64,000 bases of DNA from an uncultured Actinomycetota bacterium (GCA_963737865.1 CAVTUG010000001.1:21766-85765); one strand, 5' to 3'; counted from the first letter of the stretch, positions 10,648-27,063 are shown. Notes: a model not told the origin generated them from the letters alone. Numbers and translations are program-made.

Positions 10648-12200
10648 ATGCCCATGCAAACAGACGCCGCTAGCATCCGACGTCCTGCGGCAGGTATCCT
10701 GCGGCAGTATCTTCAGGCGACACCGCTCGACCAAATTGATGCAGCCGCGACTGCCTTCTATGCCAGTCTGGATTCAATTGGCGCTGTCGCACCTGGCGTC
10801 GCCGCAGCTATAGTGCAAGAGCTAATTGATCAGCGTTCTAATGTCAAGCTAATCGCCAGCGAAAACTACTGCTCGATGGCAGTGCAGCTCGCGCAGGGCA
10901 ACCTGCTCACCGACAAATATGCGGAGGGGTTCGCAGGTCATCGCTTCTACGCTGGCTGTGACAATGTCGACGAGATCGAGCGAACCGCAGCGGATCTTGC
11001 CGGTCAGGTCTTCGGGGCAGATCATGCGTACGTCCAGCCTCATTCGGGCGCGGACGCCAATCTGGTCGCATTTCTCGCGGTGCTGGCGGCAACCGTGGAA
11101 TCGCCCGCGCTCGAGGCCCTCGGCGAGCGAAATCCGGCTGCGGTCACCGACGCTGACTGGGCGCGCCTGCGGCAGGACTTCGTCGGCCAGAGACTTCTCG
11201 GAATGGACTACTACTCTGGCGGCCACCTCACCCACGGATATCGCCACAACGTCTCCACCGGCTATTCGAGGCGCATACCTATACCGTCGATCGCGATACT
11301 AACCTGCTTGATCTCGACGCCATCCGGCGGCAGGCTATGGAAGTTCGGCCACGGATTCTCCTAGCCGGGTATAGCGCATATTCTCGGAAAATAAATTTCG
11401 CGAAGCTACGCGAGATAGCCGATGAAGTCGGTGCCACCTTTATGGTCGACATGGCGCATTTCGCCGGTCTGGTCGCCGGCCGGGTATTCACCGGTGATTT
11501 TGATCCCGTGCCTTTTGCTCATATAGTGACCACGACCACCCACAAGACGTTGCGTGGTCCTCGCGGCGGGATAGTGCTGTGCAAGGCGGAGTTCGCGCCT
11601 GCGGTCGACAAGGGCTGTCCGATGGTGCTCGGAGGCCCGCTGCCGCACGTGATGGCGGCTAAGGCGGTGGCGCTGAAAGAGGCGCTCGATCCGGGTTTCC
11701 AGGTCTACGCGCATGACATCGTCAGCAATGCTCGCACCCTCGCCGATGAATTGCAGAAACGCGGCGGACGGGTACTCACTGACGGCACCGACAATCATCT
11801 CGTGCTGCTGGATGTCGCAACGTCGTACGGCCTGACCGGGCGCCAGGCGGAGTCTGCCCTGCGCTCCTGCGGGATGACGCTTAATCGCAACTCGCTGCCC
11901 TTCGATCCAAATGGGCCGTGGTATACCAGCGGACTCCGGCTCGGCACGGCCGCGGTGACTACTCTCGGCATGCGCGCTGCTGAGATCACCGAGATTGCCG
12001 ACGTCATCGTGTCGGTGCTGAGTCAAGTGACTGCGGTGACAACGGTGAAGGATGACGGCGCTGTGACAGTAAGCAAGGCCAAGTTCGACGTTCCGGAGAG
12101 GGTCGTCGACGGCGCGCGCCGTCGCATCGCTGACTTGCTCAGCGGACATTGCCTGTACCCGGAAATCGATCTGGACTTCATCCTTAGTCCGGCGGGCTAG
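10648..12200 (+). pseudogene. glyA: Serine hydroxymethyltransferase homologue (SHMT fold); frame broken near 11262
   Basis: LIASENYCSMAVQLAQGNLLTDKYAEG, YAGCDNVDEIE and [13 protein letters not shown] are in the first frame. My translation of the shifted frame gives [41 protein letters not shown], then [12 protein letters not shown] and [14 protein letters not shown] (PLP lysine motif). Confidence 0.85.
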
Positions 12201-15342: not shown

Positions 15343-16164
15343 CTATAACTGCGGGCTGAAGGCAGCAAGCACGGCCGCCGCCACTACGTCAGGATTCTCT
15401 AGCGGGCCTAGGTGTCCTATTCCCGGCAATTCCGTTACCTTGCCGTTCGGCAGCAGGTCCGCGATGCGGCGGATCGAGGCAGCGTCCATCACCAGGCTGA
15501 GACAGCCACGGGCAACGGTCACCGGACAGCTGACGTCAGGGATCTGTCGGTGAGCGTCGCACGTCCAGGCCGCCGTGTACCCGGCCGCCTCGGTGGCGGG
15601 GGAGCAGCGGAGGATCACTGAGCCATCCGGCTGATCGGACAGGCCATGCTCGAGGTAAGCGCGCAGAGCTTCGGGGTGAACGGCCCGGAAGGCCGGTCGG
15701 CCGGACAGGTAGTCGCTCGCGGCGGCCCTCGACGTAAACCGGCTGACCCTTCGCAGGGTCCGGGATGCCACCTCGGTGCCGTCTTGCACTGCGGCCTGGC
15801 TCGTCAGCCTGGGCAAGATGGGCTCGTAGCAGAATAGCGCCCGGAGCAGGCCGGGCTCCGCCGCCGCTGCGGCCAGCGCCGCGGTACCGCCCATAGAATG
15901 GCCGATCGCGTACGCGCCGCGCGCCGGTATCGCATCGAGCGTCGTCAGAATGTCCTGGCGGTACTCATCCCAGTGCAGGTCACCGTGCGCGGTCCGGACC
16001 GACGCGCCATGTCCGCGAAAGTCGAGTGCCACGCACCGGAACCGCTGCCTGAGCCGTTCGGCCACCGGGCGCCAGACCAGGCCGTGAAATCCGTTGGCAT
16101 GACACATGAGCAGCGTAGGGCCGGACCCGCCAAAGTCATGAACGAATACCTCTGCGCTGGTCAC
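15343..16164 (-). CDS. Alpha/beta-fold hydrolase
   Basis: It has the nucleophile elbow GHSMGG and an N-terminal HGF..LVW oxyanion region. 273 aa. GTG start at 16164-16162 overlaps the stop of the upstream kinase gene (GTGA). Confidence 0.8.
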   Translation of the reverse strand: MTSAEVFVHDFGGSGPTLLMCHANGFHGLVWRPVAERLRQRFRCVALDFRGHGASVRTAHGDLHWDEYRQDILTTLDAIPARGAYAIGHSMGGTAALAAAAAEPGLLRALFCYEPILPRLTSQAAVQDGTEVASRTLRRVSRFTSRAAASDYLSGRPAFRAVHPEALRAYLEHGLSDQPDGSVILRCSPATEAAGYTAAWTCDAHRQIPDVSCPVTVARGCLSLVMDAASIRRIADLLPNGKVTELPGIGHLGPLENPDVVAAAVLAAFSPQL

Positions 16165-18300
16165 GACGTGATCGCGATCGCCAGCGGACTGCTTCCGACG
16201 CGGATCGGGGCGCCAGGCGGCCGGTGGCCACGTCGATCGGCGTCACCGTGCCGCCGCCGTAGTTGGTGACGTAAGCGGTAGTGCCGTCCGGCGTGATCGC
16301 GATCGCCACCGGGCCGTCTCCGACCCGGATCGGGGTGCCCGCGCGGCCGGTGGCCACGTCGATCGGCGTCACGGTGTTGCCGCCGCCGTTGGCGCCGTAG
16401 TTGGCGACGTAGGCGGTCTTGCCGTCCGGCGTGATCGCGATTCCCCACGGGCCGCTCCCGACCCGGATCGGGGTGCCCGTGCGGCCGGTCGCTACATCAA
16501 TCGGCGTCACCGTGCCGCTCCTGCTGCTGCCATGGCTGGCGACGTAGGCGGTCTTGCCGTCCGGGGTGATCGCGATCCCATCCGGGCCGCTCTCCGACCT
16601 TGATCGGGGTGCCCGCGCGGCCGGTGGCCATGTCGATCGGCGTCACCGTGTTGCCGCCGTTGGCACCGTAGTTGGCCACGTAGGCGGTATTGCCGTCAGG
16701 CGTGATCGCGATCGCCCACGGGCCGTTCCCGACCCTGATCGGAGTGCCCGGCGCGGCCGGTGGCCACGTCGATCGGCGTCATGGTGTCGCCGCTGCCGTT
16801 CTTGTCGCCGTAGTTGCCGACATAGGCGGTCTTGCCGTCCGGCGTGATCGCGATCGCATCCGGGCCGTTGCCGACCTGGATCGGAGTGCCCGGCGTGGCC
16901 GGTGGCCACGTCAATCGGCGTCACTGTGTTGCCGCTGCCGTTGGTGCCGTAGTTGGCGACGTAGGCGGTCTTGCCATCCGGCGTGATCGCGATCGCATCC
17001 GGCGCGTTCCCGACCTGGATCGGGTGGCCCGCGTGGCCGGTGGCGGCGTCGATCGGCGTCACGGTGTCGCTGCCCGCGCTGGCGACGAAAGCACCTTTCG
17101 GGCCGTCGGGCGAGCTCCCGGCCGATGACGCCGGCGGCGATCACTGCGGCCGCCGCCACGGCGCCGGCGGCGACGAGAGCGATCAGCTCCGCCGCTTCGC
17201 TGGGCGTGGTCTCCGGCGTCGCCCGCTGCGGTCCGGCGGCGGTCTCCCCGCTGCGGCGATCGGCAGCTCGCGCTCCGCCCGGCCGGCATCGGCGGGCCGA
17301 CGGGTAAGCGGGCCGCGGCTCGACGGGCGGGGGCGCGGTCGCTACGGGCGCTGGCGCGGTAAACGACTCGGCGGCCTGCCCGGGCGGGCGCTGCGGCGAA
17401 CCCTCCGCCGATCCGGCCCCGTAGCGGGCCAGGCCAAGCGCCGCTCGCAGCGCCTCAGCGAAATCTCCGCAGGAAGCAAACCGGTCGGACGGCGACTTCG
17501 CTAGCGCCCGGGCGAATACGTCGTCAGCCTGGGCAGGCAGTTCCGGGCCGCCGGGAGGTCACCGGCGGCGGCGGCGCGTACAGGCGCGCGAACGCCTCCG
17601 CCAGGCCCTGATCCCGCCGGAATGGCGGGCCGCCGGTCAGCAGCTCAAAGGCCGCGCAGGCCAGCGCGTACTGGTCGGCCCGGCCGTCAACCGGGCGGCC
17701 CTCTAGCTGCTCCGGGGACATGTAGTCCAGGGTCCCGATGAACTGCCCCGAACCGGTCAGCCCGCTGGCTCGCCAGCGACCCCTTGCTCAGCCCGAAGTC
17801 CGACAGGTAGACATGATCAGGACGGCCCGGCCGGACATCGAGCAGCATGTTGGCGGGCTTGACGTCCCGGTGCACCAGTCCGGCCGCGTGCGCCGCGTCC
17901 AGCGCGGATGCCACCGGGGAGATGATCGCCGCCACCCGCTGCGGCGGTAGCGGGCCGTCCCGGTGAACCAGCGACAGCACGTCCCCGCCGTCCACGTACC
18001 GCATGGCGATGAAGAGCACGCCGTCGGCCTCGCCCGCTTCGTAAACGGGGATGATGTGCGGGTCGTCTACGGCTGCCGCCGCCATCGATTCGCCCGCGAA
18101 GCGCTGCCGGAACGCTAGGTCCCCGCCAGCGCCGGCGCCAGCAGCTTCAGGGCCACCCGGCGGTTCAGGCGCGTGTCATGCGCCCGAAATACGACCGCCA
18201 TGCCGCCCTGGCCAATCCGGTCCTCCAGCCGGTACCCGCCGATCAGCGAGCCAGCCGGCAACCAGCCCAGCGCCCACGACGGGGAGACATCATCACTCAA
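16161..18300 (-). pseudogene. Ser/Thr protein kinase with C-terminal YVTN-type beta-propeller repeats; at least 5-6 frame breaks
   Basis: The kinase N-lobe (YRLEDRIGQGGMAVVFRA, VALKLL) is in ORF 18115-18300. The catalytic loop (HRDVKPANMLL, SDFGLSKG) is in 17687-18085, and MSPEQLEG..DQYALACAAFELLTG is in 17524-17721. Repeats of the form YVANYG..NTVTPIDVATGRAGTPIRVG..P.AIAITPDGKTAYV are spread over five overlapping ORFs in 16136-17159. Confidence 0.75.
16165..17065 (-). repeat. Tandem ~132-142-bp coding repeats (about seven beta-propeller blades)
   Basis: The DNA string ccgtccggcgtgatcgcgatcgc recurs near 16284, 16424, 16556, 16694, 16836 and 16975. The translated repeat is about 46 aa. Confidence 0.7.
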
Positions 18301-18707: not shown

Positions 18708-19034
18708 GTGGACATCCGATCGGTGCAGAAGCTTGCCTGGGATAACAAGGTCGCTAAAGGCTTCAATACGACCGATGTACCCATGGAGTTCTGCCTGCTG
18801 AGCGGTGAGGTGGCGGAGGCGTTTGACTCCTGGCGCAAGGGCCAGGCGGACGTGGCGGAAGAACTCGCGGATGCGGCGATCTTCCTCGCCGGTCTGGCGG
18901 AAATGGTCGGCTCGGACTTGCAAGATGCAGTAGAAGCGAAGTTGGCTGCAAACGAGGCGCGGGTGTATCGACCACTTTCCAACGGGGTGTTGGTCAAGGC
19001 TCAGAAACCAGGCTCATCGCTGAACTCGGCATGA
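18708..19034 (+). CDS. MazG-like nucleoside triphosphate pyrophosphohydrolase (small all-alpha type)
   Basis: SGEVAEAFDSWRKGQADVAEELADAAIFLAGLAE matches the EExxE..EELAD metal-binding pattern of MazG-type enzymes. GTG 18708 is preceded by GGAGG. The 3' end overlaps the convergent kinase gene. Confidence 0.6.
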   Translation: MDIRSVQKLAWDNKVAKGFNTTDVPMEFCLLSGEVAEAFDSWRKGQADVAEELADAAIFLAGLAEMVGSDLQDAVEAKLAANEARVYRPLSNGVLVKAQKPGSSLNSA

Positions 19035-19525
19035 ACGCCGGTTGTAGTGTCGATGTTCAGAACGGTCGCGTGCTCGGATAGTTGCTTGAAGACGTTGGCG
19101 TAGCCGGCGATGAGCGAGTGGATGTGGGCTTGTGGCGGTGCGTGGCCGTCGCGTTCCTGGAGGCGCGCGGTGATGCGGTCCGGCTGGCCGGTGAGGTGGA
19201 CGAGGATTCCCTGGCGGTCGGCGACAATTGCGGCCAACTGGGCAGCCTGTTCCTGAGTGAGCCGGGAAGTTCCGCGTTCAAGAGGTCCATAGACTAGTTC
19301 GCTCACAAAACTCCGGTCAAGAACGAGTGGTCCCGGACTAGTAAGAATGGCTTTGTATCTGACGAAGAGATCCGTCCCGGCATCGCTGAGACTGGAATGG
19401 ATCACGCGGTGGCCGAAAATGGCCGATATCTGTCGTACGAGGGTGGTTTTGCCGGTTCCGTCGCAGCCGTCGAGCACGATGAGCGCGTATTGTCCGATGC
19501 TATTTGCCGGTTCTGTGAGGGTCAT
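19001..19525 (-). CDS. P-loop (deoxy)nucleoside-monophosphate kinase-like protein (thymidylate-kinase-like)
   Basis: The Walker A region IVLDGCDGTGKTT resembles the dTMP kinase EGxDGxGKTT motif. About 174 aa counted from ATG 19525, which overlaps the upstream stop as ATGA. Confidence 0.65.
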   Translation of the reverse strand: MTLTEPANSIGQYALIVLDGCDGTGKTTLVRQISAIFGHRVIHSSLSDAGTDLFVRYKAILTSPGPLVLDRSFVSELVYGPLERGTSRLTQEQAAQLAAIVADRQGILVHLTGQPDRITARLQERDGHAPPQAHIHSLIAGYANVFKQLSEHATVLNIDTTTGVHAEFSDEPGF

Positions 19526-20472
19526 CGTGCGGCCAGCAGCGCTGCGAGTTCGCTCAGATCGGCGAACTCGCCGGTGACCGCATACTGGACCATGAGATTC
19601 CGCCAATTAGGCTCGCGGCCCTCCGCGAAAGTCCAGCACTTCTTGCGGGGTAGGGCCAGAACGCGTCTTCCGGTGGCGGCGCAGGCTCCGGCGATCAATG
19701 CTGCGCCTGGTGGTGTCTCAGGTCCGGCTGTATCGATGAGAGCCAGGCTTGCGGCTTGTGCCGCTGCCCAGTCGGCTGCGGCAGCCTGTAGCGGCTCCGG
19801 CTGAGGACGGAATCTGGTGGCGATGCGCACGTCCCATCCTCTGGAAGTCAGCAATCGGGTCGCGTCCTGCCATATGTCGCATGCGGCATACGGCGATGGC
19901 TCGATATACGCTTGCCGTCTGGCTGCGTCGGTCCGGGCAATTGGTAACGTCGGCCTGGCGATTTGCAACGCCGTGATAGAACGGTCGGCGGCCTCCCGCA
20001 GTGGCTGCACATTACGTCGCAGGAAGGCGTGGTATCGGTCGTAGGTTCCTTCCGGAGACACAGCAAGCCTGCAGACTCGGATCACTTTGGCGAGCACGCT
20101 GTGGAGGAGTGGGTCGGGAAAGTCCAGCGCCGGTCCGCCCATGGTCAGCCCGTAGGTCTGGAAGTCGGTGGTCAAGGCGACAACCGGAACGCCGAGAGCG
20201 GCCGCGTACCCGATCTCCATGCATACGCCATCGTCCAGGCTTGGGCCGTGGAGCACGGCAAGCATCTTGTCGACATGAGCCAGCCGCTGACGGTCGAGTT
20301 CATACAGTCGGCGGCCTTTGCAAGGGTCGGCGAGGTCTTCCTCGTTCGTGTCGCAGAAAGGCAAGAACACTGCGTCCGTGCCAACGCGACGGGCTAACTG
20401 ATCGGCTAGGTAGGCGCCCAGGGCGCGGTCATGCAGAGAAAACAGCCGGTGGGCTACGTAATACTGTGCCAT
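19522..20472 (-). CDS. Tandem nucleoside 2-deoxyribosyltransferase/Rcl-fold protein (candidate N-glycoside hydrolase or base-exchange enzyme)
   Basis: The N-terminal half (YYVAHRLFSLHDR, FLPFCDTNEEDL, LHGPSLDDGVCMEIGYAAALGVPVVAL) fits the NDT/Rcl pattern. The C-terminal half (IDTAGPETPPGAALIAGACAATGRRVLAL) is a weaker second copy. Confidence 0.6.
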   Translation of the reverse strand: MAQYYVAHRLFSLHDRALGAYLADQLARRVGTDAVFLPFCDTNEEDLADPCKGRRLYELDRQRLAHVDKMLAVLHGPSLDDGVCMEIGYAAALGVPVVALTTDFQTYGLTMGGPALDFPDPLLHSVLAKVIRVCRLAVSPEGTYDRYHAFLRRNVQPLREAADRSITALQIARPTLPIARTDAARRQAYIEPSPYAACDIWQDATRLLTSRGWDVRIATRFRPQPEPLQAAAADWAAAQAASLALIDTAGPETPPGAALIAGACAATGRRVLALPRKKCWTFAEGREPNWRNLMVQYAVTGEFADLSELAALLAAR

Positions 20473-20482
20473 GATCCGCCTT

Positions 20483-21283
20483 TCAGGCCAGTATCGCTAA
20501 GCCTGGTTCGGTGACTGCCAGCGAGGCTGCGGCAACGGCCACTCGGAGCGCAACGGCAGGGGGATCTCCGGATGTGACGCGTGCCAGGAACGTTCCGGCG
20601 AGCGTGTCGCCAGCCCCCGTGACTTCGACAGGGTCAATGCGTGCTGGAGATACTTCGGCGACCCGACGTCCGTACCGGTGCAGCAGGACAGGTCGCGGTC
20701 CGTCAGAGACGACCACCGCAGCCAGGCTGTTGGGATCGATCAGTCCGGTAAGAGCGGAGTACTCGGCCGCGTTGACGAACACTACTTCTGCCTGGCACAG
20801 AAACGGTGCCGTGGACTTGATGAGAGCGCTCGCGCTGGCTATGTGAAAGTCCGCGCTGAACGGCGTTTGCTCGCGAGCCAAGCGGCTGAGAACCGCTTGA
20901 GCATCCAGGGGGCGCCGGCACGACACGTGGTACCGAGTGCGGCCACCGAGGGTATCGAGGCTGTGGCGAGTGAGCCAGCGGGCGACACCGAACGAGGAAG
21001 CAATGCTGCTTAACTCTCCCGTAGCGGTGTAGGTGAGTTTGAATGTGCAGGACTTGCCGACGGCCAGTCTGACGTCGGTCAGATCAATATTGGCGAGGCG
21101 CGGGTCGCTGTGAATCCATCTAAGGTCGGCGCCGATGACCGAAATGGGCGCCGCAGGGACTCCCGCTTTAACGGCCGCCCGCGCGACGTGGAACGCCGCC
21201 CCGCCCAATTGCTCAAATCGGCGGCCGTCCGGATAGACCGCAAGATCACGGGATATGTTGCCGATGACTGCCAGGGTGCTCAT
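20483..21283 (-). CDS. PfkB/ribokinase-family sugar or nucleoside kinase
   Basis: It has the C-terminal signature VTGAGDTLAGTF and an N-terminal VIGNISRDL..GGAAFHVA motif. 266 aa. Confidence 0.8.
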   Translation of the reverse strand: MSTLAVIGNISRDLAVYPDGRRFEQLGGAAFHVARAAVKAGVPAAPISVIGADLRWIHSDPRLANIDLTDVRLAVGKSCTFKLTYTATGELSSIASSFGVARWLTRHSLDTLGGRTRYHVSCRRPLDAQAVLSRLAREQTPFSADFHIASASALIKSTAPFLCQAEVVFVNAAEYSALTGLIDPNSLAAVVVSDGPRPVLLHRYGRRVAEVSPARIDPVEVTGAGDTLAGTFLARVTSGDPPAVALRVAVAAASLAVTEPGLAILA

Positions 21284-21289
21284 CAGATG

Positions 21290-22117
21290 TCACGGGGACC
21301 GTACGCACCGGCAGTTGAAGACCGCAGGGCACGCAGGTTCAGCATGGCACAAGTCGCGGGTTGGCCTGTTCAGGTAGAGACGTTTGAAGTAGATGAGTAC
21401 TAGATGAGTGAACCAGGTCGGTGAGACAGTATCGGGAATAGTGATCCGGTATCCGAGACCTGACGCCAGGTCCCGGTACGTGTCAGCGTTGTCATTTACT
21501 GCCCACTCTAGGAGTCTGCGCAGGTGCTCGTAGCCCTTCGCGCCTCGGGGCGCCGTTACTCCAAGCATCGGGGCCAGTTTGGTAACCATGCCGGCATCGA
21601 CGGGAATAATTCCGCTGTGGTATCCACGCGCATACAACACGGCACACTGTGCCGTGTTGTAGCCCGCCCCGTCGACCTTGGCGGCGAGCGAACTGATCAG
21701 GTCGTCTGCGGGCGTCGTGCCCAGATCGATTCCCGCATCGTTAGAGCAGCTAAGGAAACGATCTAGTGATCGAAGATATCTGGCGCGGGCGGACGGCAAC
21801 CCTATGGGGCGGATCAGGTCGATGAGAGATTCGTCGTCAGCGGCCGTCAGCACATCCCAGCCAGTGGCGTGCGCCCGGGCAACGACGCTGGAGTAGGTGT
21901 TGACCATCGAGTACGACACGCGCGAACTCCAGCCAGCTACAGCCATGCGGATCCGCCAGTCGGTCACGTATGTCGGCCACCACCGGTTCTCGTCATGATT
22001 GGCCTCTACGGCTGCCTGGACGTCAGGTCGCGCTGCCACTGCGGCGACAAAAGAACATAGCCTTCCGGCAACTTCGGGGGAAGGCATGGTCGGGGCTCCG
22101 GCTGGAGTTGACCTCAT
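21290..22117 (-). CDS. HhH-GPD superfamily (DNA-glycosylase fold) protein
   Basis: It has a helix-hairpin-helix-like GAGYNTAQCAVLYARGY followed by IIPVDAGM (candidate catalytic Asp), and an upstream SLIDLIRPIGLPSARARYLRSL. ATGA overlap at 22114-22117. Confidence 0.55.
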   Translation of the reverse strand: MRSTPAGAPTMPSPEVAGRLCSFVAAVAARPDVQAAVEANHDENRWWPTYVTDWRIRMAVAGWSSRVSYSMVNTYSSVVARAHATGWDVLTAADDESLIDLIRPIGLPSARARYLRSLDRFLSCSNDAGIDLGTTPADDLISSLAAKVDGAGYNTAQCAVLYARGYHSGIIPVDAGMVTKLAPMLGVTAPRGAKGYEHLRRLLEWAVNDNADTYRDLASGLGYRITIPDTVSPTWFTHLVLIYFKRLYLNRPTRDLCHAEPACPAVFNCRCVRSP

Positions 22118-22815
22118 GAGTTGTCTCCCAAAGTGAGTGCGTCGGTCACGATGGCCTGGTTTGAAGAGATGACGACCATTCCCAGATCCTGTGCGAGATC
22201 CTCGGCTAGGCCAAATGTCGGCCAGCCGGTGCAGGAAAGCACGATGGCCTGAGCGTGCTTTACCGCTTCGCTCCCGATCCGCCTGAGCAGGGCCTTCACT
22301 TCGGTGGGTTCGATACGTGAATAGCCATCCTCCAGGTTCAGCGTGGCATAGCCGGTGACCATGATGCCGTGTCTGCCTAGCGTGTCGGCCTCATCGTCTG
22401 CCATCGCTTGCGGGTACGGAGTGAGCAGCACGATGCGGCTGATTTGCCGATGTCGGAGAGCACTAAGTATGGCGTCGAACGCTGTGATCATCGGCACAGG
22501 GAAGGCGGCGCTGGCAGCCTGTGCCTGGTCCGGCATCATGAATGCTGCTGAGGTGCATGCCAGGTATACCCGGCCTAGAGGCAGTTCCGTCAGCTGACCG
22601 AGAGCGGCCGGGACCGCACTGATGAGGCCCGAGAGGAATTCCTGGCCAAGAGCCGTGCACCGCGAAGCTGGTACAAGTCGAGCGTAATGCCAGGTGATCG
22701 ACTCACCCGACCATAGTGGTAACTCGGCTTCAACAACCGAGTTCGCCCAAGGCACCAGGACGCCGGCATGCCCGACGAACCGCATCCGTGCTGGCTTAGG
22801 CGGCTGCTGTTGCAT
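22114..22815 (-). CDS. Asp/Glu/hydantoin racemase superfamily protein (maleate isomerase / arylmalonate decarboxylase-like)
   Basis: It has two cysteine motifs spaced as in this superfamily (YLACTSAAF and VLSCTGWPT). 233 aa. The start may be the internal MRFVGHAG. Confidence 0.6.
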   Translation of the reverse strand: MQQQPPKPARMRFVGHAGVLVPWANSVVEAELPLWSGESITWHYARLVPASRCTALGQEFLSGLISAVPAALGQLTELPLGRVYLACTSAAFMMPDQAQAASAAFPVPMITAFDAILSALRHRQISRIVLLTPYPQAMADDEADTLGRHGIMVTGYATLNLEDGYSRIEPTEVKALLRRIGSEAVKHAQAIVLSCTGWPTFGLAEDLAQDLGMVVISSNQAIVTDALTLGDNS

Positions 22816-24323
22816 GCCGGCTCTCCGATGATGTAGCGAGCCTCATGCGCAGTCACCACTAGGTCGACGGGTTCGCGCAGCGGTCGGACAGTCCCTAGTT
22901 CGAGCACCTGGATGGGGTAGGAACCGAGTCGGCGGTGCCAGGTGCCCTTTGATGTGACAAAGAACGAATGGAGTTCTGGGATCACATGTCCAGCCGGGTA
23001 GACACGCTGTTTCATCGGCTTGTCGAAGATTTGCGATACGTCAGCCTTCCAGGTCTCGAAATGCTCCGATGATGGAGGTTCCGCGACGTCACTCAACGCG
23101 GCGAGCGGTGTGCCGTCGTAGGCGTGAGCCTGACGTACGTTGATGCGATGGCACAAGTAGCCCTCATCCAGGATCCGTACCAGGCCAGCGAGATTCTCAT
23201 AGTGCGTCCGGTGAGTCTCGCCCGGGAGTCCGTAGACTAGGTTCAGCCCTGGCAGCAGCTTCGGTAGGCCTCCAGGGCCGGGGCCGGCCCCGGCCTCATT
23301 GATATTCGCGATCGCGCGCATCAGTATCTCCCGAGTGCACGTCAGAGAATTCTGGCCGATCACCTCGGGGTCAAAGCTTTCGATGCCCATGGGCGCACAG
23401 TTACCTTCAGTGCAGTAGGTGGCTACCAATCGCGCGATCGTCGCTCCGCTGCGTGATGCAACTGCCAGTGGATCAGCATTATCAATGTGAAGAACCTGCA
23501 GTTCGGGATTATTTGCTCGGATCGCTCCGAGAAGGCGCTCGATCGCTTGAGCATCACGGTTCAGATAAGAGAAGAAACAGGTCTGCTGGCCCAAACGTAG
23601 GTTTCGTACTCCACCACGGTACAGCGCTGAGATCTCGTCTATTACATCATCAGGATCCCGGAAGGCGACGATGCTGCTCTTGACCGGCTCATTGCAGAAT
23701 GAGCAATAGCGTCGCCGGGTGCAACCGCGGTACAGTTCGATCTCTGCGACTGGCTGCCAGCCAAGTTGGCTGATCAGGCCATCGAATGTGCTGCGGTCGG
23801 CCCTAAGCGACTCGTATGACGCTGCCTGTCGGCTACCTCCGGCAAGGTCGGCGGAAGTCACGGTGTGCGTGTGCGTGGCGTCGAACAACCCAGCGAATGC
23901 CGGATGTCCACGAACAACGGTCGTGCCGAGTGGGCCGAGCAGGATTCGCCTTCCTCGGGCGCAAGCCAGCGCGCGCACGATCTCATCTGCCGACCCATTA
24001 CGGGCATGTAAGTGGAATGAAGGAACGGCGTCACCCGCCACCACGACGGTCATTTGCGAATCGGCGAGAATCCTCAGTGTTTCCTCGCGATTGACGGTTG
24101 CCGAATAAGTTAGTGCGTCGGTGACAGGGGGTTGCGTGTATGGTTGGCACCCGTTAACGCACCAGCGCACGTCGTCAATGGTTACATACCGGACATCGTA
24201 TCCCGGAAATGCCTTTGTAAGGGCACTGTACGCGACTCTGGCATACGTAGATAAGTACGGCGGCACGCCCAGCCCACTCGGTTCCACCGTATAACAGTCC
24301 AAGATGGCGACGATCCCGGTCAT
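22590..24323 (-). CDS. Large radical SAM enzyme with CX5CX2C motif; the last ~75 codons overlap the next gene and are probably read-through
   Basis: YRGCTRRRYCSFCNEP is at 23694-23723. A downstream LVYGLPGETHRTHYENL resembles the methylthiotransferase-type radical SAM core. ATG 24323 is preceded by GGAGG. The ORF has TGC where an ATGA-type stop is expected at 22812-22814. Confidence 0.7.
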   Translation of the reverse strand: MTGIVAILDCYTVEPSGLGVPPYLSTYARVAYSALTKAFPGYDVRYVTIDDVRWCVNGCQPYTQPPVTDALTYSATVNREETLRILADSQMTVVVAGDAVPSFHLHARNGSADEIVRALACARGRRILLGPLGTTVVRGHPAFAGLFDATHTHTVTSADLAGGSRQAASYESLRADRSTFDGLISQLGWQPVAEIELYRGCTRRRYCSFCNEPVKSSIVAFRDPDDVIDEISALYRGGVRNLRLGQQTCFFSYLNRDAQAIERLLGAIRANNPELQVLHIDNADPLAVASRSGATIARLVATYCTEGNCAPMGIESFDPEVIGQNSLTCTREILMRAIANINEAGAGPGPGGLPKLLPGLNLVYGLPGETHRTHYENLAGLVRILDEGYLCHRINVRQAHAYDGTPLAALSDVAEPPSSEHFETWKADVSQIFDKPMKQRVYPAGHVIPELHSFFVTSKGTWHRRLGSYPIQVLELGTVRPLREPVDLVVTAHEARYIIGEPACNSSRLSQHGCGSSGMPASWCLGRTRLLKPSYHYGRVSRSPGITLDLYQLRGARLLARNSSRASSVRSRPLSVS

Positions 24324-24880: not shown

Positions 24881-24940
24881 TAGTTGCGCGTCTGATTGTT
24901 GGAAGTACCTGTGACAGCGATTCCGGAAGGCGGTGACGCA

Positions 24941-26168
24941 GTGCGGAAGCGCGCCACGTCCGTTTTGATCGTGCTCGCCGCGGCCATTGCGGCGACCGGC
25001 ACGCTAGCTGAGATCGAGGGCACAGCACTCGCGGCTGGTGGGCCTGGAGCGGGGCGGGGGTCTGGCCCGGTCGCGTCGGGGAGCCTGCTGGCCTGGGGCA
25101 AGAACGTGAACGGCGAGCTCGGCGACGGCACCAGGAAGACGCGCAGCGTCCCCGTGACCGTCACCCTGCCTACGGGCACCAAGGTGACGGCGGTGACGGC
25201 CGGCGCGCATCACACCCTGGCCCTCACCGCAGCGGGGAGCGTGCTCGCCTGGGGGAGTAACACCGACGGGGAACTCGGCGACGGTGCCACGCAGACCAGC
25301 CTGGTGCCGGTCAGCGTCAACCTCGCGCCCGGCATCCGGATCACCGCCGTGCAGGCCGGGCTGCCACGACAGCATGGCTCTGACCGCTGCGGGTCGGGTG
25401 CTGACCTGGGGCGACAACGGCTTCGGCGAGCTCGGCGACGGCATCAGGACTAGCAGCGACGTTCCCGTGCAGGTGCGGCTGCCGGCCGGGACGACGGTTA
25501 CGGCCATCAGCGCTGGCTGCTTTTTCGACCTGGCGCTGACTTCGACTGGGCGGGTTTATGCCTGGGGGCGCAACTACGGCGGCTCGCTCGGCGACGGCAA
25601 GTTCAGTGCCGGAAGCACGGTCCCGGTCAGGGTCCGGCTGCCGGCCGGGGTGCGCGTCACGTCCTTCGGCGCGGGTTCACTCAACGCGCTAGCGGTCACC
25701 GCGACTGGCAAGGTCTACATCTGGGGCAATCTCACCGGCGGCACCCCACAGCTGGTCCACCTGCCCGTCGGGCGCCAGTCTGGCCGGGTGGTCGCGGTGG
25801 CGCTCGGCGCGCTGCACGCACTGGCTCTGACCTCGCGCGGTGTCATCATCGCCTGGGGTTACGACTACGCCGGCCAGCTGGGCGACGGCAAGACGTGCAA
25901 CTGCGACTTCGGCCCGGCGCGGGTGCTGCTGCCGGCGGGCGTGAAGGCCACCGGCATCGGCGCGGGCTTTTACGAGAGCTATGCGATCACGAGCGGGAAT
26001 CAGGTGTACGCGTGGGGTGACAACCGCCTCGGCCAGCTCGGGGCTGGCACCACGGCGATCAACAGCGACATTCCTGTCCTGGTGGCGCTGCCACCTGGCC
26101 AGCACGCGATCAGCATCGGGGGCGGGCCGAACGCCAACCACGGTCTCGCGGTCACGGTTGCGGGCTAG
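24941..26168 (+). pseudogene. Secreted RCC1-repeat (beta-propeller) protein; frame broken at the GGG run 25358-25360
   Basis: It has the signal-like VRKRATSVLIVLAAAIAATG. Repeats are LAWGKNVNGELGDG, LAWGSNTDGELGDG, LTWGDNGFGELGDG, YAWGRNYGGSLGDG, AWGYDYAGQLGDG and YAWGDNRLGQLGAG. Removing one G at 25358-25360 joins ITAVQAG to CHDSMALTAAGRVLTWG. Confidence 0.8.
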
Positions 26169-26230: not shown

Positions 26231-26426
26231 CTGTTGAAAATAGCCCGCCAACAGCAGCAAGTAGGAACTTGCTGCTGTTGCCGGGGCGGCCTCTCATGGA
26301 AGAAGCAAGTCCAGGTCGGTAAACCGTGCCGGGGGTGACCTGCGTCTTGTCATCGGGACACCAACTAAGTCGGAGGATTCTCGATGTCGCGACGCACAGC
26401 CGGAACGCGGTCCGCGCGGGTGCAGG
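26231..26426 (+). repeat. Direct repeat copy A: duplicated upstream region, RBS and first ~14 codons of gene 27021, ending in a truncated 44-codon ORF (26384-26518)
   Basis: The 26311-26426 block matches 26949-27063 at roughly 90 percent or better by eye, including GGAGGA and ATGTCGCGACGCACAGC. The 26231-26280 block matches 26841-26890. Confidence 0.8.
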
Positions 26427-26840: not shown

Positions 26841-27063
26841 CTGTTTAAAATGGCCCGCCGACAGCAGTAAGTAGGAACTTGCTGCTATTGCGCGCCGGTC
26901 GCGAGCTTGCGGCGCGTTGCCGGCGCGGTCGCTGGGGAGGAAGAAAGGCCAGGTCGGTAAACCGTGCGGGGGTGACCAGCGTCATGTCATCGGGACACCA
27001 ACCAAGTCGGAGGATTCTCGATGTCGCGACGCACAGCAGGAACGCGGTCCGTGCAGGTGCAGG
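26841..27063 (+). repeat. Direct repeat copy B (functional 5' region of the secreted repeat-protein gene)
   Basis: See copy A. This copy contains an extra ~25 bp in its central, diverged part. Confidence 0.8.

Follow-up and report, generated by a model that had tools for sequence, protein, structure and literature searches.

The locus studied here raises the question of what seven genes standing side by side in actinomycete DNA make together, and whether they work for the biosynthetic genes next to them or on their own account. The window, by which we mean the whole 64,000-nucleotide stretch from an uncultured Actinomycetota bacterium (GCA_963737865.1 CAVTUG010000001.1:21766-85765), holds these genes at positions 18708-24323, where six genes headed by a radical S-adenosylmethionine (SAM) enzyme meet a MazG-type gene. 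Our analysis shows that the seven genes form one self-contained, horizontally mobile operon or cassette that is independent of its neighbours. As to its purpose we lean, with somewhat less than even confidence, towards a reading in which the cassette makes and controls a non-canonical nucleotide, most likely a base-modified pyrimidine 2'-deoxynucleotide, that acts as an antimetabolite against competitors or phages. A check of the open reading frames (ORFs) in the window found all seven to be intact at 18708-24323:

22590-24323, minus strand: radical SAM enzyme (577-codon ORF; the conserved protein is amino acids 1-503, window 22815-24323)
22590-22814, minus strand: read-through tail of the radical SAM ORF, not conserved (about 74 codons overlying the beginning of the racemase-fold gene in a different frame)
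22114-22815, minus strand: Asp/Glu-racemase / maleate-isomerase-fold protein (Pfam Amdase and Asp_Glu_race; C87 and C195 kept)
21290-22117, minus strand: endonuclease III (EndoIII)-like glycosylase of the helix-hairpin-helix (HhH)-GPD type (AlphaFold model and Foldseek; catalytic Asp D174)
20483-21283, minus strand: PfkB-family kinase, 266 amino acids, acting on a sugar or nucleoside (Pfam PfkB 67.6 bits)
19522-20472, minus strand: tandem protein of the nucleoside 2-deoxyribosyltransferase (NDT) fold (catalytic N-half with E86, degenerate C-half)
19001-19525, minus strand: small P-loop kinase of the thymidylate kinase/deoxynucleoside kinase (Tmk/dNK) type, 174 amino acids (PHROG 761, YorR; ATG start at 19525)
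18708-19034, plus strand: MazG-like all-alpha nucleoside triphosphate (NTP) pyrophosphohydrolase, 108 amino acids (GTG start, GGAGG 6 nt upstream; PHROG 3301)

The unity of the cassette is seen from its distribution. Scanning one genome per species gave 74 loci with a close relative of the radical SAM enzyme, all but one of them in Actinomycetota, and the survey of its co-occurrence with the tandem NDT protein that had been proposed alongside the original prediction returned the full set of seven genes, present and colinear, in 64 of the 74; four more loci are truncated at contig ends. Such colinearity makes the gene set more than the product of chance. The hosts comprise more than 60 actinomycete species from Streptomyces, Nonomuraea, Actinoplanes, Kitasatospora and other genera, and the MazG gene, as the seventh, runs in the direction of the other six in 55 loci and converges on them in nine, the window's clade included. 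It is also evident that the radical SAM and HhH families are nearly equal in size (374 versus 365 matches in 5.8 billion proteins), and these equal small numbers suggest that both exist mainly as cassette partners. With regard to mobility, the cassette is carried by four large Streptomyces plasmids, large linear ones included, and its flanks vary from locus to locus, containing tyrosine integrases, DDE transposases and HTH_31/DUF397/HATPase_c_2 genes. In the window, the GC content of the cassette is 0.60-0.63 compared to 0.65-0.73 around it, and its GC content at third codon positions (GC3) is 0.65-0.71 compared to 0.75-0.88 in most flanking genes.

These data bear directly on the earlier idea that the operon feeds the flanking tailoring and non-ribosomal peptide synthetase (NRPS) genes, supplying a modified base or nucleoside for a peptidyl-nucleoside product. 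Genes for a DegT aminotransferase, an AMP-binding enzyme, a CmlA-like hydroxylase and a hydrolase do lie 3-15 kb off, beyond MazG, and NDT-fold enzymes start the known peptidyl-cytosine pathways. However, the NRPS-type genes accompany the cassette at none of the other loci and it therefore does not serve them; moreover, the lower GC3 of the cassette is unlike that of these neighbours, and a protein-kinase fragment and a repeat-protein gene intervene. The idea is thus largely refuted by the absent co-occurrence, and we give it next to no credence.

The fold calls of the original prediction (radical SAM, racemase, HhH-GPD, PfkB, NDT, Tmk-like kinase and MazG) all turned out to be right when examined by profile and structure searches, and in all seven proteins the predicted catalytic residues are intact and 100% conserved. 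The racemase-fold protein scored above the Pfam threshold with both PF17645 (Amdase, 47.7 bits) and PF01177 (Asp_Glu_race, 45 bits), and its matches in the PDB are arylmalonate decarboxylase and maleate isomerase. A pair of cysteines is the pattern of racemases and isomerases, whereas a single cysteine is that of arylmalonate decarboxylase. Since C87 and C195 are both 100% conserved in the family alignment, the protein is predicted to fit the former pattern and not the latter. The PfkB protein (PF00294, 67.6 bits, above threshold) has its G223-A-G-D226 motif and its NxxE motif (N171, E174) conserved, D226 to 100%, and its profile matches generic PfkB structures only.

The two halves of the NDT protein gave different results. 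The N-half (amino acids 5-111) scored 59.5 bits with PF05014 (cut-off 28.8) and matched PDB entry 7m5h at E 2e-11; the nucleophilic Glu of the DxGxxxExG loop, E86, is 100% conserved, and a search of the PDB placed this half closest to classical deoxyribosyltransferases and Rcl. The C-half, in contrast, was recognised weakly (7m5h at E 0.013 in the homologous loop, hhalign E 0.008) and carries Leu or Ile instead of the catalytic Glu. The active site of NDT enzymes is formed across a dimer interface, and the fusion of an active with a degenerate half could therefore result in a built-in pseudo-dimer with a single site.

In the mildiomycin, blasticidin S and bacimethrin pathways the enzymes MilA/MilB, BlsM and BcmA/BcmB bring about base release from cytidine monophosphate (CMP), and the original prediction named MilB and BlsM among the NDT-fold enzymes that initiate peptidyl-cytosine nucleoside pathways. 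The cassette shares with these pathways an NDT-fold enzyme for a pyrimidine nucleotide, and the parallel has an unforeseen counterpart outside the window: a ThyA-like gene was found in 11 of the 74 loci at no more than 10 kb from the cassette, and its top PDB match is MilA, the CMP 5-hydroxymethylase (5b6d, E 1e-36, compared to 1e-18 for thymidylate synthases). The copies are L064:5607-6617 (minus strand), L004:3129-4160 (minus), L029:4610-5632 (minus) and those of eight other loci. They are accompanied by a glycosyltransferase-like gene and a carbamoyltransferase gene (L004), by a tandem NDK and a second radical SAM enzyme (L029) or by a P-loop kinase (L064, L019). This recurrence points to a pyrimidine-nucleotide theme in the islands that carry the cassette, and the MilA-like genes may represent a second nucleotide-modification module on the same islands, outside the core cassette. 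On the other side, the window has neither a MilA-like gene nor any other hydroxymethylase, no peptidyl-nucleoside tailoring genes are conserved with the cassette, and the NDT N-half did not retrieve MilB or BlsM from the PDB.

The small kinase matched the thymidylate kinases of PHROG 761 (1e-18) and, by profile, YorR of the SPbeta prophage (2axp, 8e-17), scored 24 bits with TIGR00041 (cut-off 83), and has K26 of the P-loop and D70-R71 conserved to 100%; judged by these matches it is a predicted Tmk/dNK-like enzyme of the phage type. The MazG protein matched PHROG 3301 (pyrophosphatase, 3e-15) and was sub-threshold in Pfam (21 bits, cut-off 27), and the residues of its metal-binding helices (ExxE...EExxD; E27, E34, E37, E51, E52 and D55) are 100% conserved.

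A MazG-type enzyme next to a dedicated deoxynucleoside monophosphate (dNMP) kinase is the classical phage arrangement, exemplified in phage T4 by the dCTPase gp56, the dCMP hydroxymethylase gp42 and the dNMP kinase gp1. This brings in the main rival of the antimetabolite reading, namely DNA hypermodification by the logic that yields hydroxymethyl-dCTP in T4. MazG would convert a canonical deoxynucleoside triphosphate (dNTP) to the dNMP, the radical SAM enzyme and the isomerase would modify the dNMP, the Tmk-like kinase would re-phosphorylate it, and the product would be built into the DNA of the cell or a mobile element, with the glycosylase and the NDT protein editing or recycling the base, modified or not. 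Apart from the T4-like pairing itself, in which an NTP pyrophosphatase and a dNMP-type kinase flank a nucleotide-modifying step as in the phage pathways to modified dNTPs, this rival gains from the phage families matched by the kinase and MazG, from the MilA-like genes with partners typical of hypermodification enzymes, from a glycosylase that appears to be DNA-directed, and from the benefit that plasmids and integrase-bearing islands carrying the cassette would draw from protected DNA. However, the modifier in the cassette is a MiaB-like radical SAM enzyme and not a ThyA homologue, the MilA-like module is missing from 85% of the loci and from the window, and the cassette is chromosomal or plasmid-borne, relatives being absent from phage genomes and IMG/VR. 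In addition, the genes conserved with the cassette include no polymerase, no restriction partner and no DNA transglycosylase of a known type, and the scheme leaves the NDT and PfkB proteins with no explained role. We therefore regard hypermodification as unlikely, albeit as an account to be kept in view; if true, it would mean a new chemically modified base for bacterial DNA. The absence from phages rests on searches with the radical SAM, NDT and HhH proteins, which found no relatives in IMG/VR, either with single sequences or with profiles, or among GenBank phages.

New chemistry in the cassette has two candidates only, the radical SAM enzyme and the two-thiol isomerase. The radical SAM protein scored 36.6 bits with Pfam PF04055 (cut-off 29.5), and its cluster motif is the variant CX5CX2C (C201/C207/C210), which is invariant in 73 cassette copies and 90 distant relatives. 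The AlphaFold model (predicted local distance difference test, pLDDT, 87) shows three domains, the first Rossmann-like, the second the radical SAM core and the last a beta-barrel at the C-terminus (strands 447-502). Its best full-length Foldseek matches are MiaB, MtaB and RimO (E 4e-17 to 6e-15, TMt 0.66-0.73), and the best viral structural match is likewise an MtaB. The three-domain architecture with a TRAM-like C-terminal beta-barrel is thus common to the cassette enzyme and the methylthiotransferases. In contrast to MiaB and RimO, the cassette enzyme uses CX5CX2C as cluster motif, lacks the three auxiliary-cluster cysteines of the N-terminal UPF0004 domain, in which C10 alone is conserved, and scored about 15 bits in NCBIfam, where the cut-offs are about 355 (TIGR01574: 15 vs 355). 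The missing N-terminal cysteines and the score far below the TIGR01574 cut-off speak against membership of the methylthiotransferases. An identity as prokaryotic viperin was not supported; viperin structures match the core alone (E ~6e-4, TMq 0.31). Pfam searches with the isolated N- and C-domains of the radical SAM protein, the NDT C-half and the N-terminus of the HhH protein gave no match even at E 10.

The radical SAM protein belongs to an uncharacterised family (COG1031 type) of 470 clusters at 50% identity, labelled by JGI as 'radical SAM superfamily enzyme with C-terminal helix-hairpin-helix motif'. The family is otherwise mostly archaeal, its distant full-length members being archaeal, and NCBIfam has no model that names the archaeal relatives. 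None of the six cassette partners was found beside the distant relatives in 80 metagenome loci (L081-L160), and the copy in Armatimonadota is likewise without them. The neighbours of the archaeal-type stand-alone relatives in these 80 loci include RNase III (13 loci), KsgA (six loci) and a DUF655-like gene (six loci), and in a haloarchaeal locus (L163) a separate TRAM-domain gene comes next; the company of these genes hints that the parent family acts on RNA. Eight residues (C249, C304, C309, C329, C391, D98, H104 and H151) are invariant in the cassette clade and absent from the archaeal relatives. Taken together, the MiaB/RimO architecture, the stand-alone archaeal relatives near RNase III and KsgA, and the gained Cys, His and Asp residues indicate that an enzyme modifying nucleobases or nucleic acids has been recruited and its scaffold re-tooled for the cassette. 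The cassette also offers a first way into the function of a radical SAM family found widely among archaea, to which no reaction has been assigned.

The glycosylase scored below the Pfam threshold for HhH-GPD (20.8 bits, cut-off 26.2). Its AlphaFold model (pLDDT 86) gave EndoIII, Ogg and MagIII as top Foldseek matches (probability 1.0, TM ~0.5), and D174, which is 100% conserved, aligns with the catalytic Asp of EndoIII. The C-terminal loop has the form C-x5-C-x5-C-x-C/H, with four ligand-type residues as in a metal-binding site; C257, C263 and C269 are 100% conserved, and position 271 is Cys or His. At the position of EndoIII K120, 51 of 52 species-representative loci encode a Lys, whereas the window and its closest relatives have Asn. 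The cassette glycosylases resemble the EndoIII/MutY type in fold, helix-hairpin-helix and catalytic Asp, with a partial likeness in the Lys at the K120 position (in most members) and in the Cys-rich C-terminal metal loop. They differ from EndoIII in the spacing of the cysteines (C-x6-C-x2-C-x5-C in EndoIII), in an extra conserved N-terminal motif (EANHDxNRWWP), in their sub-threshold Pfam score and, for the window copy, in having Asn for Lys. The presence of the lyase Lys in 51 of 52 loci argues for a DNA-directed enzyme, as such a Lys makes sense only on DNA. At 21656-21661 the window encodes N154-T155 where 51 of 52 orthologues have Lys-Val at the lyase-Lys position; as judged by this substitution, the window's clade may have lost the lyase activity.

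The same model has a weak resemblance to the queuine salvage enzyme DUF2419/Qng1 (rank 22, E 0.09), which raises the alternative that the cassette salvages or detoxifies a modified nucleoside arising from nucleic-acid turnover or uptake, comparable to queuosine salvage, where the base is recovered through a hydrolase and a radical SAM lyase. For this purpose a kinase acting ahead of an N-glycosidase would be a logical pair, and a gene of the VUT family (queuosine-precursor transporter type) lies 10 kb from one plasmid copy. Nevertheless, the glycosylase is far nearer to DNA glycosylases than to Qng1, base salvage needs neither MazG nor a Tmk-like kinase, no transporter is conserved with the cassette, and the cassette is patchy in occurrence, borne by islands and plasmids and foreign in codon composition. 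Salvage is for these reasons very improbable. We think it improbable as well, if to a lesser degree, that the cassette puts a base made by the radical SAM enzyme into the DNA of the host or a mobile element and that the glycosylase/lyase tells modified from unmodified DNA, which would amount to modification-restriction by base excision with no nuclease. Such a system, if true, would be built on a COG1031-type enzyme family that is uncharacterised in all organisms.

We now return to the reading that we favour, a modified deoxynucleotide with antimetabolite action. Three components give signals of a DNA-type substrate, namely the NDT N-half with its likeness to classical deoxyribosyltransferases, the kinase with its likeness to phage Tmk and YorR, and the EndoIII-like glycosylase. 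The parts of the cassette span all levels at which a base is handled, that is DNA (glycosylase), deoxynucleoside (NDT protein) and phosphates (upwards by the kinases, downwards by MazG). In the scheme that we infer for substrate, order of steps, product and biological role, the NDT-fold protein would transfer the base onto or off a 2'-deoxyribosyl unit, and PfkB and the phage-type Tmk/dNK-like kinase would phosphorylate the nucleoside to its mono- and diphosphate forms. The MiaB-like radical SAM enzyme would carry out the actual modification, on a nucleotide or on nucleic acid, aided by the two-thiol enzyme as isomerase or epimerase. Two steps would serve self-protection, as MazG would hydrolyse the toxic triphosphate and the glycosylase would take the odd base out of the producer's DNA. 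Of the readings put forward earlier, that of a non-canonical deoxynucleotide or DNA modification and that of self-resistance or defence are both possible, and our best model combines them.

The closest published logic is, by analogy, that of thmABC in Photorhabdus asymbiotica, where genes for a radical SAM enzyme, for a nucleoside kinase and for an NTPase direct the synthesis of 4'-thiothymidine; of these the NTPase suffices for self-resistance, and each species has the cluster in different flanks (PMC12691670). The comparison is one of functional roles, both having a radical SAM enzyme, a kinase of the (deoxy)nucleoside type, an enzyme that hydrolyses NTPs, no exporter and varying genomic surroundings. 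It should be underlined that thmABC has three genes and belongs to Gammaproteobacteria, whereas the cassette has seven, that it is without NDT, PfkB, racemase-fold and glycosylase components, and that its product is modified in the sugar whereas the cassette glycosylase points to modification of the base.

Several points weigh against a modified-deoxynucleotide antimetabolite. Neither the cassette nor thmABC contains an exporter, and the hairpin Lys is missing from the glycosylase of the window. The glycosylase would protect only against a base-modified analogue, so that modification of the sugar by the radical SAM enzyme would void this role. Two kinases and an NTP pyrophosphatase would suit a DNA-modification pathway equally well, and the defence genes scattered over the flanks would be no less compatible with action against phages inside the cell than with a secreted antibiotic.

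These defence genes include TIR-Macro, Cas3-like and AAA_11/12 helicases, MADS, HEC-01, AbiLi, AriA, JetD, Abi_C and AAA_15/21. In addition, a gene for a protein of about 461 amino acids with an N-terminal HTH and a C-terminal TPR region stands divergently just upstream of the radical SAM gene in about 40 loci, mostly in Streptomyces (L069:8404-9789, minus strand); it likely encodes the regulator of the cassette, and the window has no copy of it. Both observations speak for a degradative anti-phage system, in which MazG and the NDT-fold hydrolase would drain a phage-specific or general dNTP pool to base and sugar phosphate, the glycosylase would attack modified phage DNA, and the other enzymes would process the freed base. 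Nucleotide depletion and DNA glycosylases are both established means of defence, and Ophion demonstrates that protection against phage can come from a radical SAM enzyme working together with nucleotide-handling enzymes. However, a purely degradative system has no use for two anabolic kinases, sensors and effectors of known types are absent, the defence neighbours are sporadic and stand among ordinary genes, and PADLOC gave no meaningful match for any of the seven proteins, the kinase being matched in its P-loop only. We accordingly consider a degradative defence system to be decidedly unlikely.

The original prediction also claimed that this combination of genes matches no known pathway, and the claim was upheld by PADLOC, NCBIfam, the RefSeq annotation of a plasmid copy and the literature. 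Against the catalogued anti-phage systems of PADLOC-DB 2.0, six cassette proteins gave no match and the kinase gave P-loop-only matches; NCBIfam gave no system or equivalog for the cassette proteins; the names of the genes in RefSeq and other public records are generic only; and a full-text literature search by combinations of component names found no paper on this gene set. Ophion (radical SAM, PHP and PRTase) was rejected as the described system, its gene set being different. Thus, neither the arrangement of the seven genes nor the families of its radical SAM enzyme and its glycosylase appear to be described in the catalogues and literature searched, whereas small operons for nucleotide modification or nucleoside analogues are already known in kind. 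If our favoured reading of an antimetabolite is true, a large number of Streptomyces and allied actinomycetes possess a small, transferable pathway to an unisolated nucleoside or nucleotide analogue together with the resistance genes, from which the search for antibiotics and antivirals as well as nucleoside biocatalysis would directly profit. The whole set takes up 5.6 kb, and either reading, antimetabolite or DNA modification, is open to a test by heterologous expression.

With regard to the layout in the window, the six minus-strand ORFs stand as first described, as do the ATGA overlaps at 22114-22117 (racemase-fold/HhH-GPD) and 19522-19525 (NDT/kinase) and the gaps of 6 nt (HhH-GPD/PfkB) and 10 nt (PfkB/NDT). 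The junction between the radical SAM ORF and the racemase-fold gene, in contrast, is not a gap but an overlap of 226 nt. In the relatives L001 and L002, the overlap at this junction is only 17-32 nt. The relatives of the radical SAM protein are 501-515 amino acids long and cover the first 87% of the window protein, whose ORF is without the stop that the relatives carry at about 505-515 amino acids and is read for about 74 extra codons in another frame. Because the relatives span only the first 87%, these last codons constitute a non-conserved read-through tail. Extended ends were also seen in the relatives L005, L070, L009 and L071, and the position of the stop is therefore unstable in the family. 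Separate gene calls back the start of the kinase gene (174 amino acids) and the coordinates of the MazG gene (108 amino acids), and these two convergent genes overlap tail to tail by 34 nt (19001-19034). Neither att-like flanking repeats nor a tRNA gene was found in the window, and a promoter and terminator scan of the window gave background level only.

Some loci depart from the common layout. A few of them have an eighth gene, translationally coupled to MazG, for an HFCD-type flavoprotein of PF02441, the phosphopantothenoylcysteine decarboxylase family (L001:15377-15886, minus strand; L007; L019:15727-16236, plus strand; probably L080:8196-8711), and the window is without one. In a member of the Pseudonocardiaceae (L164:5172-9936), the cassette comes directly after kdpF...kdpC with an annotation gap between, which suggests insertion into or beside the kdp operon.

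The surroundings in the window show several features of their own. Within the neighbouring biosynthetic set, the serine hydroxymethyltransferase gene at 10648-12200 is split into the overlapping ORFs 10648-11364 and 11337-12200 (Pfam SHMT positions 6-109 and 167-399), a sign that the gene is frameshifted, a pseudogene or wrongly assembled. The DNA between the NRPS-type genes and the cassette has a decayed look: six tandem units of about 138 nt at 16164-17074 encode a repeat protein (YVANYG...TPID motifs), and a 132-amino-acid ORF at 17687-18085 with the catalytic loop of a Ser/Thr protein kinase (HRDVKPANMLL) has the appearance of a gene fragment. Directly upstream of the radical SAM gene, an RCC1-repeat gene at 24896-26168 is split in overlapping frames (24896-25453 and 25284-26168) and is possibly frameshifted. 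Finally, two intergenic segments of about 200 nt at 26231-26426 and 26841-27063, situated 610-640 nt apart, are 89-94% identical, and each contains a near-perfect hairpin (e.g. 26244-26285).

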